Position numbers and translations under genes: made by a program. From Vicingus sp. (GTDB lineage Bacteria > Bacteroidota > Bacteroidia > Flavobacteriales_E > Vicingaceae): a stretch of DNA of 64,000 bases. The stretch spans positions 10,413 to 74,412 of the forward strand of contig JAVHRO010000080.1 in NCBI GenBank assembly GCA_036171675.1, read 5' to 3'. The notes beneath the pieces are model-generated. The model ran no database searches. It was not told the DNA's origin and saw only the letters and a program-made list of their open reading frames with translations. Positions 24,057 through 30,104 of the stretch are shown one piece after another. Position 1 is the stretch's first letter, and the number at the start of each line of letters is the position of its first letter.

Positions 24057-24857
24057 TTATTTAAAGATAAAAAACTTGCCTAAAACGACTAATGGTAAAA
24101 TTTCGAGCGTACAAATGTACAAAATAATATATAAAAATGAAACTTTAAAGGAAATACCCATTACAAAAAAACGCATAAATCTGATAATTAGACTAATAAG
24201 AATTAATGGGATAATGATATAGAATAAAATGGTATGACTAGCAATATGAGAGAAATACATTAGCGCAATAGCTGGGATTAGTAATAAGCCTAGCAAATAA
24301 TTATAAAGTAACAAATTGTAGGAATATGAAGGAAGTATTTCAACTTGAGAAAAAATAATGGCTAAAAGAGCGTTAAACAAAAATTTAAGTGCATAGCTCA
24401 ATATAACTAAACCAACTATTTGAAGGAATAATAATAAACCCACATCAAGCCGACCATAACGAATACTTACGGAATAAATTAACAAAGAAGTAGTGAATAA
24501 AAAAATCAAGAATAACCCTAAATTTACTCGATGAAAAAACACTTTTTCATCTCTAACAACTTCATTAGCGGAGTAATATGAAAATAACGACTTGTAAATT
24601 TGATTAAACCGATTTATTCCAAATGCCCTTATAAACGCCAATATTAAAACGGAAATTGTTAATATTATTGATGGCCATGTTGTGTTCACCGCAACATTTA
24701 TAGTTGGTTGAAAAGATATTTTTTGATCTTGTTTTAAAAGTTTTGTAGTATTAACCTTAACTTTTCGAACCGGGATTTTGCTGGTATTGCCTAATTCAAA
24801 AGCCACTGAATCTTGAACTATGGTGTCGTTTTGTATGATGGTGGTTGGGGTTGGCAC
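24057..24857 (-). CDS. DUF4271 domain membrane protein
   Basis: Multi-TM; C-terminal YIILYICTLEILP; upstream of hemD in the same orientation. Confidence 0.8.
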   Translation of the reverse strand: MPTPTTIIQNDTIVQDSVAFELGNTSKIPVRKVKVNTTKLLKQDQKISFQPTINVAVNTTWPSIILTISVLILAFIRAFGINRFNQIYKSLFSYYSANEVVRDEKVFFHRVNLGLFLIFLFTTSLLIYSVSIRYGRLDVGLLLFLQIVGLVILSYALKFLFNALLAIIFSQVEILPSYSYNLLLYNYLLGLLLIPAIALMYFSHIASHTILFYIIIPLILISLIIRFMRFFVMGISFKVSFLYIILYICTLEILPLVVLGKFFIFK

Positions 24858-25108
24858 TTCAATAAAACTATTTGTGTGTGTTTACTTTTTTCGAACATAA
24901 ATTTCTGAGCAATATTCAACTTTTATTCATTCTAAAAACGTTTTCTTGCTAACTTACATAGTAAGACTAACCGCATCAATTTGTGGAATGAAATAAATAA
25001 AATTACTCATTCCTACAAAAATAGTTTATTTGAAGGGTTTGGGAAATAATTGTTTTAAATAATTATTTAACCCGTTATGCATTTAGAAGAATTTTTAATA
25101 AAAAATTT

Positions 25109-25151
25109 GTCACTTCGATTGTCTCGCAGTAATGCGGGATGTATCAAGAAG
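25109..25151. repeat. REP-like repeat, copy 2
   Basis: gtcacttcgattgtctcgcagtaatgcgggatgtatcaagaag; matches 1523-1565. Confidence 0.65.
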
Positions 25152-25286
25152 AGAAAAAACTTTGTAAAATTCCATTTAAAATTTGGCGAATCTTGTTTTT
25201 ATACAAAACAATATATTGTATAATGAGTATCGTTTCACAATATTCAATCGAATTTCAATTTTATTGTAAAAAAATCAAAATAAAAT

Positions 25287-25316
25287 TTTGTAATTAAAAT
25301 TTTTGTTTTACTTTTG
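25287..25316 (+). promoter_or_regulatory. Bacteroidota sigma-A promoter of the met operon
   Basis: TTTG (25287-25290), 18 nt spacer, TACTTTTG (25309-25316). Confidence 0.65.
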
Positions 25317-25358
25317 CCCCATCAATCATTTACAAGTTCTGTAAAAAGTTTTTGTAAC

Positions 25359-25486
25359 TGTTTATAAAGAAGAAGCGAGAGATTAGGCTCTATGACCTTC
25401 TGGCAACCAACTTAAAGTCCCGATAAAAAGGGATTGGAAAACAGGTGCCAAATCCTAACCACGTCTTAGGCGTGGGAAAATAAATA
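25359..25486 (+). ncRNA. SAM-I (S-box) riboswitch
   Basis: P1 tgtttat/ataaata; aaagaagaagcgagagattaggctctatgacc P2 kink-turn region; tggcaacc...ggtgcca P3; aatcc; ccacg/cgtgg P4; upstream of metY. Confidence 0.88.
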
Positions 25487-25495
25487 AATTACAAA

Positions 25496-25651
25496 ATGAA
25501 AACAAAAGCAAAAAACCAACTCAACAACTCCGAGAGATTTTCGAATCTTAAGAACGGGATTACTTCGGTCTTCCAACTTCGGTCTTCCGACTCTTTTACT
25601 GAATCCTTTTCAGCAAAAATGATGTGTTGCATGTGCTGTTGCATGTGTTAA
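25496..25651 (+). CDS. Met/Cys-rich leader peptide (uORF, 51 aa)
   Basis: MKTKAKNQLNNSERFSNLKNGITSVFQLRSSDSFTESFSAKMMCCMCCCMC*; last 10 codons all Met or Cys; AT-rich initiation context. Confidence 0.75.
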   Translation: MKTKAKNQLNNSERFSNLKNGITSVFQLRSSDSFTESFSAKMMCCMCCCMC

Positions 25652-25783
25652 TACATCTTTATTTCAAATAACATTCTCGAAAATTAAGATGTAGGTTTTC
25701 CTAAAGGAACAACCATATCCTGTAATAGCTATTTTTTCAAAAATCAGTAAACCAATTAATTATTTATAAATCTTAAAAACTAA

Positions 25784-27133
<1,350 letters not shown>

Positions 27134-27136
27134 ACC

Positions 27137-28186
27137 ATGAACACTCAACAGTTTAAATACAACAACAAATTTCAATTGGAATCGGGAAGAACACTTCCTG
27201 AATTCCAATTGGGATTTACTACATTGGGCAAACTAAATGCTGCAAAAGATAATGTCATTTGGATTACTCATGCGTTAACAGCCAACTCCAATCCTGAAGA
27301 ATGGTGGAATGGTTTAGTGGGCAAGGGAAAGTTTTTTAATCCTGAACAACATTTTATTGTTTGTGCCAATATGTTGGGGTCGCCTTATGGTTCAACCAAT
27401 CCTTTATCGGTAAACCCGCAAACAGGAAATAAGTATTATCATCATTTTCCAACACTCACCATTCGAGATATTGTAAATGCCTTTGAGTTACTGCGTCAAT
27501 ATTTGGGAATTATCAAAATCAATACGTTGGTAGGTGGTTCATTGGGCGGACAACAAGCTTTAGAGTGGGCAATACAACAACCTGAATTAATAGAAAACCT
27601 GTTTTTAATTGCCACCAATGCCCAACATTCGCCATGGGGAATTGCTTTTAACGAAAGTCAGCGTTTGGCGATAAAAGCCGACAGAACATGGTTTTCATAC
27701 AGTGATGATGCCGGAATAAAAGGTTTAAAGGCTGCCCGGGCAATTGCTTTGTTGAGTTATAGAAACTACCAAACCTATCAAATTTCACAAGAAGATTTGG
27801 AAGAAAAAACAGATGATTTCAATGCTGCTTCTTACCAAAATTACCAAGGCGAAAAATTGGTAAATCGGTTTAATGCTTATTCATATTGGCAGTTGTCAAA
27901 AGCAATGGATAGCCACCATGTGGGACGAAACAGAGGGAGTATTGTTCAAGCATTAAATTTAATACAAGCAAACACGTTGGTAGTCGCAATTGAGTCTGAT
28001 GTGTTGTTTCCTGTTTCTGAGTCGGTTACGTTGAAAGAAAATATCAAAAATAGTGAGTTGAAAATTATAGATTCGCTTTACGGACACGATGGATTTCTAT
28101 TAGAAACCGAACAATTAAAAAACATTTTTGAAAATTTTTACATCACCAAAAAACTAAAAAAAGAAATTTATGAGTACACCGACTAA
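27137..28186 (+). CDS. metX: Homoserine O-acyltransferase MetX
   Basis: HALTANS, GGSLGG nucleophile, SDVLFP, GHDGFL. Confidence 0.93.
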   Translation: MNTQQFKYNNKFQLESGRTLPEFQLGFTTLGKLNAAKDNVIWITHALTANSNPEEWWNGLVGKGKFFNPEQHFIVCANMLGSPYGSTNPLSVNPQTGNKYYHHFPTLTIRDIVNAFELLRQYLGIIKINTLVGGSLGGQQALEWAIQQPELIENLFLIATNAQHSPWGIAFNESQRLAIKADRTWFSYSDDAGIKGLKAARAIALLSYRNYQTYQISQEDLEEKTDDFNAASYQNYQGEKLVNRFNAYSYWQLSKAMDSHHVGRNRGSIVQALNLIQANTLVVAIESDVLFPVSESVTLKENIKNSELKIIDSLYGHDGFLLETEQLKNIFENFYITKKLKKEIYEYTD

Positions 28187-29387
28187 AAACATAGGGCTTA
28201 TAGGGTTTGGCACAGTTGGAAATGGGTTCTACAACTATTTAGTACAAAACAACGAAGACAAGCAATTGGCAACCGTAGTTATAAAAAATGCATCGAAAAG
28301 TAGAATACCTGATACGTTGAATTTTACAACCGATGTAAATGAAGTTTATAAAAACAAAGAAATAAACACCGTTGTAGAATTAATCAGCGATGATAAAGAG
28401 GCATTCAACATCGTAAAAAAAGCCTTATTACAAGGCAAAAGTGTAGTTTCGGCAAACAAAAAAATGATTGCTCACCATTTGGAAGAGTTGGTGGAATTGG
28501 AGCAACAATTCGGCGGTAAATTTTTATACGAAGGAGCTGTTGCTGGTAGTATTCCCATCCTAAAAATCATTAACGAACACTATGCTTTTGATGAAATTAC
28601 CGAAATACGTGGCATTTTAAACGGAACATCCAACTACATTTTAACTCAACTTTTCGAGAAAGGAATGGATTATAAGGAAGCATTAAAACAAGCTCAAGAA
28701 GCTGGATTTGCAGAGGTTAATCCAGCATCAGATGTAGAAGGTTATGATGCACTTTATAAGTTGTTAATTTTAGCTGCTCATGCTTTTGGTAAATTTATTT
28801 TACCCGAAAAAGTATTAGCTATTGGTATCAACAATATAAAACCAGTTGATATTACTTTTGCTAAAAGGAATAATTTAACCATTAAATTGTTAGGTTCTGT
28901 CAAAAACATAAACAATAAACTTACCTTAAGTGTTATCTCAACTTTTGTTGATGAAAGTGACGAATTATACCCTATTAAAAATGAATACAATGCAGTTGAA
29001 GTAATTTCTAAAAACTTAGGTTCTCAATTGTATAAAGGTAAAGGTGCCGGGTGCTTACCTACAGGGCATGTGGTTTATACCGATTATAAATCTATTGAAA
29101 GTGCAAAATATACTTATAAAAATACCTCATCGGGAAAACGAATAAAACACGAAACCAATCAAACTATTTGGTTGTATTCTGATAAGATTGCACTTTTAGA
29201 GAACTATTTAGATGATGTTGTTTTCTTTGGTGGTTCTCAAGGTTATGGCAACATTAAAATTGCCGATTTAATAAAAACAAAAAATTTAATACATATTCAC
29301 AATATTTCAATCGTTGCAATACCTGAAAAAATAGTAAAAAAGTTAACTTTGAACATTAAAAATATTGAGCTAATAGAATATGTTTAA
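28170..29387 (+). CDS. hom: Homoserine dehydrogenase (stand-alone)
   Basis: GLIGFGTVG, VVSANK, YEGAVAGSIP, GILNGTSNYIL, DVEGYDA..K. Confidence 0.92.
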   Translation: MSTPTKNIGLIGFGTVGNGFYNYLVQNNEDKQLATVVIKNASKSRIPDTLNFTTDVNEVYKNKEINTVVELISDDKEAFNIVKKALLQGKSVVSANKKMIAHHLEELVELEQQFGGKFLYEGAVAGSIPILKIINEHYAFDEITEIRGILNGTSNYILTQLFEKGMDYKEALKQAQEAGFAEVNPASDVEGYDALYKLLILAAHAFGKFILPEKVLAIGINNIKPVDITFAKRNNLTIKLLGSVKNINNKLTLSVISTFVDESDELYPIKNEYNAVEVISKNLGSQLYKGKGAGCLPTGHVVYTDYKSIESAKYTYKNTSSGKRIKHETNQTIWLYSDKIALLENYLDDVVFFGGSQGYGNIKIADLIKTKNLIHIHNISIVAIPEKIVKKLTLNIKNIELIEYV

Positions 29388-29417
29388 AATGGCTTTTTTG
29401 TTTTATTACGGTGCAAT

Positions 29418-30104
29418 ATGATTAATAAGGTTAAAAGAATTGTTTCGGAAGCTGAAATAGAGTTGTTAAATATTAAATACAAAAAACTATCGGTAGAAGA
29501 GCGTGTGGAGGAATTGTATAACGATTTTGAGGCAAAAGAAATTATGTTAACCTCTTCATTTGCGGCTACATCAGCGTTTTTATTGCATGTTTTTTCTAAA
29601 ATTAATTCAACCCAAAAAATTTATTTCATCAACACAGGTTACCATTTTAAAGACACCTTAGCGTACAAAGAACAATTGATTAGACTGTATCAATTAAATG
29701 TAGAAGATGTTTCTGCTGAAAAATGGGAACACGAATTTACTACCAAAGATGAAACGTGGAAAAAAGATCCAGACATGTGCTGTTCAATTAATAAAGTAAA
29801 ACCATTGGAATTAATAAAGGAGCGATATACCGTTTGGGTTTCTGGTTTGATGGAATGGCAAAGCGACCATAGAGCCACTTTAGATATTTTTGAAGACCGT
29901 GGGGGAATATTAAAATTTTATCCATTACTGGATGTAACTAAACAAAAAAGAGAAGAATATATCAAAAAAAACAATCTACCATTTCATCCATTAATTTCGA
30001 AAGGATATTCATCAATTGGTTGTAAACACTGCACAATCCCAGGTGATGATAGAGAAGGAAGATGGAACAATAACCCCAAAACAGAATGTGGGCTACACTT
30101 ATAA
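29418..30104 (+). CDS. cysH: APS/PAPS reductase CysH
   Basis: TSSF, NTGYHF, CC...CKHC, GRW, C-terminal ECGLH. Confidence 0.92.
   Translation: MINKVKRIVSEAEIELLNIKYKKLSVEERVEELYNDFEAKEIMLTSSFAATSAFLLHVFSKINSTQKIYFINTGYHFKDTLAYKEQLIRLYQLNVEDVSAEKWEHEFTTKDETWKKDPDMCCSINKVKPLELIKERYTVWVSGLMEWQSDHRATLDIFEDRGGILKFYPLLDVTKQKREEYIKKNNLPFHPLISKGYSSIGCKHCTIPGDDREGRWNNNPKTECGLHL

Follow-up and report, generated by a model that had tools for sequence, protein, structure and literature searches.

The operon metY-metX-hom-cysH-like of Vicingus sp. (Bacteroidota; Flavobacteriales_E; Vicingaceae) is preceded by a leader in which a riboswitch aptamer of the SAM-I type, which senses S-adenosylmethionine (SAM), runs almost directly into the start codon of a short upstream open reading frame (uORF), the last ten codons of which all encode methionine or cysteine. 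This leader lies within a stretch of 64,000 nucleotides from contig JAVHRO010000080.1 (assembly GCA_036171675.1, positions 10,413 to 74,412 of the forward strand), which is referred to here as the window. The architecture of the leader, in terms of the aptamer, its spacing from the start codon, the open frame and the alternative helices that follow, is close to certain (Table 1). The model to which these features point is that of a composite leader, where a SAM-I aptamer without an RNA expression platform of its own would act through the ribosome that translates the leader ORF, and to this whole chain of events we assign a probability of roughly 0.6.

The arrangement is relevant to a more general difficulty, namely how riboswitch control can be explained in Bacteroidota, where there is no Shine-Dalgarno (SD) sequence. 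The leader offers a concrete and testable answer, in which the closing helix of the aptamer is prolonged so as to cover the codon at which a leader peptide begins.

The aptamer and the start of the leader frame

The preliminary description of this DNA, made from its letters, had recognised a SAM-I riboswitch, had placed the 3' strand of the closing helix P1 (25480-25486) 9 nt ahead of the uORF ATG, and had suggested a comparison with the Rfam model RF00162 using Infernal. That comparison, made with cmscan, bears the assignment out, as the match is full length (model positions 1-108 of 108) at 63.9 bits (E 1.6e-12), set against a gathering score of 44.4 bits, and it is the sole Rfam match in the 64-kb window. 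The spacing was also exact, with 9 nt (25487-25495, AAUUACAAA) separating the end of the P1 3' strand at 25486 from the ATG at 25496-25498. The four-helix junction of P1-P4 is present both in the cmscan structure line and in an independent energy folding, and the P3 loop carries a 25-nt insertion. Judged by its sequence this is an ordinary full-length member of SAM-I, for which binding of SAM is predicted.

The classical S-box platform, consisting of an antiterminator that shares the P1 3' strand followed by an intrinsic terminator, is absent from the metY copy. There is no hairpin with a U-tract in the interval between the aptamer and the ATG, since 9 nt are too short to hold one, and a consensus terminator scan of 24800-26000 returned no terminator-like site. 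The earlier statement that the riboswitch has no obvious terminator is therefore right for this interval but not for the leader as a whole, which does have a hairpin and U-tract, termed T1, at 25621-25665, where it overlaps the end of the uORF; T1 escaped the consensus scan because its stem is bulged and rich in G-U pairs. Likewise, no SD sequence is found upstream of 25496, as is to be expected given that Bacteroidota ribosomes do not use one (PMC6847099). What tunes initiation in Flavobacterium johnsoniae is the structure of the mRNA together with an A at position -3, and not SD pairing (PMC6847099).

What, then, could the aptamer act upon? The P1 helix is continued outwards by 8 further pairs, formed between the 5' flank of the aptamer and the spacer that precedes the uORF, such that P1 and this extension together span the uORF start region from -17 to +1 and the A residues at -3, -2 and -1 all fall inside the extension. 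The unconstrained minimum free energy (MFE) structure of 25323-25530 contains the whole aptamer, P1 and the extension, with pair probabilities of 0.5-0.6 for most pairs and of 0.32-0.58 within the extension, where the outermost pair has the value of 0.32; all energies reported here come from nearest-neighbour models of A-U-rich RNA. A structure in which the P1 3' strand is free is just 0.8 kcal/mol worse than the MFE, and the closed helix is predicted to be occupied about 50% of the time without ligand. In these models, open and closed states so nearly balanced in energy are the behaviour expected of a helix that is tipped closed by its ligand. The 5' flank should be part of the transcript, since a TAnnTTTG box, the candidate -7 element of the promoter, is conserved upstream of it, lying 47-58 nt before the TTTATA of P1 in 29 of 30 related loci (one locus has two boxes, one of them at 66 nt).

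Those 30 loci constitute the family of the window, a sample of leaders recovered by DNA similarity. A second sample, a phylum survey, comprises 80 Bacteroidota loci that encode a MetY relative, taken from Sphingobacteriales, Cytophagales, Chitinophagales, Saprospirales and Flavobacteriales-like genomes. In the survey 65 of the 80 loci have a SAM-I aptamer ahead of metY according to Rfam. An ATG no more than 17 nt beyond P1 is present in 55 of these 65, where it begins a uORF that is 23-57 codons long (median 42) and is complete before metY starts. The ATG stands 6-11 nt after P1 in 53 of the 65, as compared with 3.1% when the same test is applied to shuffled leaders. Leaders with a P1-proximal ATG that opens a uORF are termed class A, and terminator-type leaders that do not have it are termed class B. 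On the basis of these sequences the adjacency of P1 and ATG is conserved and not a product of chance, being held in about 80% of the sampled SAM-I metY leaders across several classes. Of the 55 class A uORFs, 41 have four or more Cys codons among their final 12. Within the family all 30 uORFs (35-59 codons with a Met/Cys tail) are open from the P1-proximal ATG, and the differences in length between them keep the frame open, even where a direct repeat resembling a repetitive extragenic palindrome (REP) has been inserted. That the frame stays open from this ATG across such divergence argues that initiation there matters.

A conserved frame of this kind, which at 35-59 codons in the family is longer than most leader peptides, might also be taken for a functional Cys/Met-rich small protein, for instance one that binds a metal or sulfur, with the riboswitch simply rendering its synthesis SAM-dependent. 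However, all that is kept within the uORF is a Lys-rich start and a C-terminal richness in Cys and Met, while the middle varies freely and tolerates the in-frame REP-like insertions; moreover, the uORF has no Pfam match and its codons double as a terminator arm, which together make a small protein a very improbable explanation.

The extension of P1 is similarly a property of the family and not of the window alone. In each of the 30 loci the helix formed by P1 and its extension has its end at a position from -4 to +5 relative to the A of the AUG, and in the family alignment 87% of the extension cells pair, a share that falls to 40-58% once the partner is shifted by one to three columns. An aptamer's own 5' flank forms 3.89 stacked pairs on the spacer, against 2.94 +/- 0.16 when flanks are swapped between loci, and across 56 class A leaders the duplex of P1 plus flank has an energy of -8.55 kcal/mol with its own partner versus -6.42 +/- 0.28 kcal/mol with swapped ones; this swapping between loci was judged a better control than a mononucleotide shuffle. 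The pairs that stand right before the AUG also differ between orders, as GGUU/AACC, GAUU/AAUC and GUCUU/AAGAC, which are compensatory, and as CAG/CUG. A helix that is predicted to be stabilised by the ligand therefore overlaps the initiation region, and its pairing is locus-specific by permutation.

Alternative helices at the end of the leader frame

The second part of the leader resembles an amino acid attenuator, with a conserved short ORF that contains a run of codons for the end products of the operon that it precedes. The aptamer itself also sits in the 5' leader of Met/Cys/SAM genes, with metY-metX-hom-cysH downstream. Three mutually exclusive helices can be drawn (1:2, 2:3 and 3:4), which is the topology of attenuators of the trp and his type. 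The 1:2 helix is the stem of T1, whose 5' arm consists of the Met/Cys codons (region 1) and whose 3' arm contains the UAA stop and the next 6 nt, and it is followed directly by a U-tract. T1 has a folding energy of -18.6 kcal/mol (z -5.2), a stability reached by none of 200 shuffled sequences. Its geometry recurs in 30 of the 30 family loci with a U-tract after the stem, mostly at -14 to -25 kcal/mol with a few weaker cases, and in most of these leaders the stem runs from 28-36 nt ahead of the uORF stop to 8-13 nt past it. The non-coding 3' arm of T1 tracks the codons with which it pairs, so that ACAUC follows GAUGU in one group of loci and GCAUCAU follows AUGAUGC in another.

The 2:3 helix (-7.6 kcal/mol, z -2.4) excludes both T1 and the 3:4 hairpin, as its two strands are drawn from the 3' arm of T1 and from the 5' side of the 3:4 hairpin. 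RNAalifold gave no consensus pairs for the 30 family attenuators when these were aligned with MAFFT; such an alignment is not structure-aware, and per-sequence constrained folding combined with cross-locus permutation was therefore used. In the family the 1:2 pairing of own partners averages -9.99 kcal/mol as compared with -8.18 +/- 0.36 for cross-locus partners, and the 2:3 pairing -10.76 as compared with -7.83 +/- 0.44 kcal/mol, both at p<0.002, values that overstate independence because the sampled loci are phylogenetically related. The 3:4 hairpin, with the U-run beyond it, represents a candidate second terminator, T2, which is more canonical, in the sense of a stem followed by a U-tract, in several relatives such as L084 and L093.

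T1 is a good candidate terminator, and the A-rich P1 3' strand has a 7-nt A-U complementarity to its U-tract, features that would suit a riboswitch made of RNA only, in which, across a very long loop, the freed P1 3' strand would serve as an antiterminator by pairing with part of T1 and translation would have no role. This long-range pairing was rejected as a candidate, since it is not lineage-specific and is no better with an aptamer's own partner (p 0.22 for region 2 and 0.46 for region 1). It also amounts to -2.4 kcal/mol in the window, set against -18.6 for T1, it must join segments that are about 130 nt apart, and it leaves unexplained the conserved open frame and its Met/Cys codons. Of the explanations considered, that of a switch acting through RNA pairing alone is the hardest to credit.

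Table 1 Features of the metY leader and the downstream genes, by position in the window
Feature	Position	Strand	Description
Candidate -33 element TTTG	25287..25290	+	18 nt upstream of the -7 box; read from the sequence, inferred
Candidate Bacteroidetes -7 box	25309..25316	+	TACTTTTG; pattern match; start placed near 25322-25326
P1 extension, 5' strand	25350..25357	+	UUUUGUAA; pairs with 25489-25496
SAM-I aptamer, RF00162	25359..25486	+	P1 = 25359-25365 : 25480-25486; covariance model and energy folding
P1 extension, 3' strand	25489..25496	+	UUACAAAA; its final A begins the uORF AUG; includes the A at -3
uORF	25496..25651	+	51 codons and stop, MKTKAKNQLNNSERFSNLKNGITSVFQLRSSDSFTESFSAKMMCCMCCCMC; tail MMCCMCCCMC
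REP-like direct repeat, in frame within the uORF	25562..25592	+	ACTTCGGTCTTCC, two copies
Regulatory codon block, attenuator region 1	25619..25648	+	AUG AUG UGU UGC AUG UGC UGU UGC AUG UGU; 4 Met, 6 Cys
T1, candidate intrinsic terminator or pause	25621..25665	+	hairpin 25621-25657, then U-tract UUUAUUUC at 25658-25665
Alternative 2:3 helix	25652..25693	+	25652-25659 (UACAUCUU) : 25686-25693 (AAGAUGUA), perfect complement
T2, candidate second terminator	25688..25738	+	3:4 hairpin 25688-25719, U-run 25730-25738; -10.7 kcal/mol, z -1.7
Regulated operon metY-metX-hom-cysH-like	25790..30104	+	Pfam matches
metY, O-acetylhomoserine sulfhydrylase	25790-27133	+	Cys_Met_Meta_PP, 4e-134
metX	27137-28186	+	Abhydrolase_1
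hom	28170-29387	+	Homoserine_dh
cysH-like PAPS reductase	29418-30104	+	PAPS_reduct

The mechanism that is proposed for the composite leader has three steps. With SAM bound, P1 and its 8-bp extension (25350-25365 : 25480-25496) would be closed and the start region of the uORF buried, leaving the leader ORF untranslated, as Bacteroidota ribosomes need an unstructured, A-rich start. With no ribosome present, the Met/Cys codon block would then pair with the stop region, T1 would form and transcription would end before metY. When SAM is low, the helix would open to allow a ribosome to enter and, by analogy with attenuators of the trp and his type, to melt T1, after which the outcome would depend upon the charging of tRNA. 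Where charged Met-tRNA or Cys-tRNA runs low, the ribosome would stall on the first Met/Cys codons of region 1, region 2 (25652-25659) would pair with region 3 (25686-25693), the 3:4 hairpin would be blocked and RNA polymerase would read into metY-metX-hom-cysH, whereas with plentiful amino acids the ribosome would reach the stop codon and cover region 2, allowing 3:4 to form. The net logic would be an operon that is on only if SAM is low and Cys/Met-tRNA charging is low, and the sign of the feedback in the proposed mechanism is right for both inputs.

A serial switch of this type, with SAM gating initiation of the leader peptide and the level of Cys/Met-tRNA read afterwards, had been put forward in the preliminary description. 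The spacing, the missing platform, the P1 extension and the absence of lineage-specific P1-T1 pairing all agree with that proposal, and it is from them that we infer the gating itself. Taken alone, the gating step, by which SAM would control initiation of the leader ORF, is likely. The logic of 2:3 and 3:4 in the window, which rests on the analogy with known attenuators, stands at even odds.

Several observations weigh against the composite leader. Within the attenuator, (i) T2 is a poor terminator in the window, where its U-run, which the classical model needs directly behind the stem, starts 10 nt after it and the z-score is -1.7, (ii) the structures that follow the uORF differ between orders outside the family, and a loose scan for a hairpin plus U-run, applied to the 55 class A leaders of other orders, was not strict enough to discriminate, and (iii) melting of T1 needs a ribosome that keeps pace with RNA polymerase, and the pause that this requires is not seen in the sequence. 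Rho-dependent termination could, in addition, replace or supplement T1. For the P1 extension, the family contains a single two-sided change and a shuffle control was not exceeded, which means that there is conserved pairing potential within the family and not covariation. Moreover, neither the count nor the end position of the extension pairs was significant in the flank-swap test, although the stacking and the duplex energy were, and a mononucleotide-shuffle test of the 5' flank against the spacer in 56 leaders was not significant either (mean z -0.36). Part of the pairing reflects base composition, as the helix is A-U rich.

The weakness of T2 in the window would also suit a different coupling, in which the gating is real but its sign is reversed, with translation of the leader repressing metY as for the uORF of M. 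tuberculosis metE, or in which the melting of T1 is all that matters and the Met/Cys codons merely build the hairpin. Repeats of AUG, UGU and UGC are self-complementary, such that a run of Met and Cys yields a hairpin for free, and Algoriphagus and Cyclobacterium keep the P1-proximal ATG and a uORF with few Cys codons. With a reversed sign, however, SAM would activate methionine synthesis, which is the wrong feedback, while a coupling through T1 alone leaves the conserved 2:3 helix without a role and must contend with runs of Cys or Met that persist in 41 of 55 leaders although the structures around them differ greatly. Such a coupling is accordingly rather improbable.

Leaders with terminators of their own

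Ten of the 65 SAM-I metY leaders, mostly from Chitinophagaceae, are without a P1-proximal ATG, and at least six of these ten have the textbook arrangement, in which the P1 3' strand (AGAUAAGUCAGAU) is complementary to the terminator 5' arm GCUCAUCUGAUUUAUCGGGUGAGCUUUUUU. In two Chitinophagaceae-type leaders, L037 (1221-1905) and L040 (1314-1908), the aptamer has its own terminator, and a 25-codon poly-Cys uORF with the tails ..CICCRCCMP and ..CICCCCCMP is located 360-460 nt further down, just before metY. The uORF here stands apart from the aptamer, and the two modules are therefore separable.

The genome of the window itself contains a second SAM-I aptamer of 76 bits (G000:C57:3169-3296; L081 1501-1628), followed by AACCCCUU...AAGGGGUUUUUUAUUUUU, whose P1 3' strand matches the 5' side of a terminator, the antiterminator and terminator being AACCCCTT..AAGGGGTTTTTTATTTTT. 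The ortholog of this second aptamer in the longer contig of a relative (L113) precedes metH. With an intrinsic terminator at the SAM-I of its own metH, the organism can evidently use such terminators, and the metY copy thus differs in kind; that the metY aptamer has no expression platform of its own is supported by these sequence comparisons.

The separability of the modules raises the question of whether their adjacency in the window means anything. The two could be independent neighbours, with the peptide attenuating alone, the aptamer repressing through Rho on the untranslated, A/C-rich leader, through RNA decay or through a roadblock, and the closeness reflecting compaction. The physical separation in L037 and L040 indicates that each module can work alone, and the body of the uORF resembles a Rho loading site in being rich in A and C and poor in G. 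Against this, a spacing of 6-11 nt that recurs in 53 of 65 leaders belonging to several classes would be left unexplained, the spacer pairs better with the 5' flank of its own aptamer than with the flanks of other loci, and aptamers without a terminator always abut an ATG. A Rho route that depends upon an untranslated uORF is, furthermore, a version of the composite mechanism and not an alternative to it. Independence of the two modules is for these reasons unlikely, even if it is the least improbable of the other explanations. As to the wider distribution, it is a toss-up whether Bacteroidota hold a phylum-wide class of ribosome-platform riboswitches, where the sole output of the aptamer would be the admission or exclusion of a leader-ORF ribosome that in turn works a Cys/Met-codon attenuator.

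Comparison with known leaders and further observations

Like SAM-I riboswitches generally, the leader has a full-length RF00162 aptamer ahead of methionine and sulfur genes. Unlike the usual cases, it has no antiterminator and terminator of its own and no SD to sequester, and the closing helix runs into the start of a leader ORF and not into that of the regulated gene. Surveys that seek only terminators or SD occlusion would misclassify the expression platform in these genomes. With the trpL, hisL and thrL attenuators the leader shares a short ORF containing codons for the products of the pathway, the exclusive helices 1:2, 2:3 and 3:4, and U-tracts after hairpins. It differs from them in that entry of the ribosome is apparently controlled by an aptamer, in that the 1:2 helix itself carries a U-tract, and in that the uORF is long (51 codons), with the control codons, Met and Cys mixed, at its very end.

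Combinations of a ligand-sensing RNA with a uORF are known elsewhere. Park and colleagues are said to have described, in 2010, such a leader for Salmonella mgtA, which responds to Mg2+ and contains the proline-rich mgtL. In M. tuberculosis a B12 switch before ppe2 controls a uORF, the translation of which is needed for expression (PMC11260477). As in these two systems, a ligand-sensing RNA and a uORF that is predicted to be translated would act here on the same downstream gene. The ppe2 leader, however, works by termination-reinitiation, whereas in the window the stop of the uORF (ending at 25651) is 138 nt from the metY ATG (25790) and neither overlaps nor abuts it, which excludes this mode, and the mgtA uORF lies inside the switching region, whereas that of the window is proposed to be gated at its start. 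Neither system senses SAM or Cys/Met.

Leaders that read Cys codons have been described as uORFC-8-2 before cysS in Rhodobacterales (PMC8632094) and as the polycysteine sORFs (small ORFs) of mycobacteria (bioRxiv 10.1101/834739). The two inputs that are proposed here, SAM and the charging of a sulfur amino-acid tRNA, are combined in a single methionine-gene leader both in the logic gates of Firmicutes, formed by SAM-I and a T-box(Met) in tandem (PMC9481103), and in Xanthomonas, where a SAM-I RNA also binds uncharged tRNA-fMet (PMC7270179). In the window, unlike in either of these, it would be a translating ribosome and not a tRNA-binding RNA that senses tRNA charging, and unlike in the SAM-I/T-box tandems the two sensors would share one platform instead of having one each. 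If the model is true, the leader represents a natural gate with two inputs, in which a riboswitch is joined to an attenuator that the ribosome reads, as opposed to the two RNA sensors of the Firmicutes tandems. The full-text literature searched, a coverage from which subscription journals are mostly absent, gave no account of a Bacteroidota leader in which SAM-I precedes a Cys/Met leader peptide. The uORF is unannotated and merits being added to the genome annotation.

With regard to the promoter, the spacing between the candidate TTTG element and the -7 box fits the Bacteroidetes promoter consensus. In the 5' leader, the family loci L091-L107 have a small hairpin, CACnnnnnGUG, immediately ahead of the P1 extension and about 12-22 nt upstream of P1, with compensatory variants in L097 (CGU..ACG) and L102 (UGC..GCA). 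At 25329-25345 the window has a small hairpin of another sequence.

Within the uORF, the REP-like repeat occurs as variants in L087 and L088 and is absent from L084, with the frame always kept, and its 31-nt segment (25562-25592) alone matches dozens of other sites in the same and in related genomes. Further down, L088, a relative from the same genus, contains a tandem repeat of ATCAATT in eight or more copies, about 90 nt past the uORF stop and before the downstream gene. The first gene behind the leader also varies, as metX (MSTKIYTYKK...LESGRKL) replaces metY in many relatives (L087, L091, L093, L095, L096 and others), and the leader can thus accompany whichever of the two genes stands first in the operon.

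Finally, two groups of leaders outside the family have their own character. Those of Algoriphagus, Belliella and Cyclobacterium (L008, L011, L020, L021, L028, L031) have an ATG 7-9 nt after P1 and a uORF of 25-41 codons with few or no Cys, and from their sequences may be a version that is gated by SAM only. In Cytophagales and Ohtaekwangia-type leaders (L007, L009, L010, L012, L014, L015, L019, L025) a common element, CAGCAACAC...UAGCCUAYGACCUGCCAAGUGACAGG...GGUUACGGCUA, without an obvious U-tract, is found about 20-110 nt past the uORF stop, and the Cys codons of these leaders pair with CAGCAACA.

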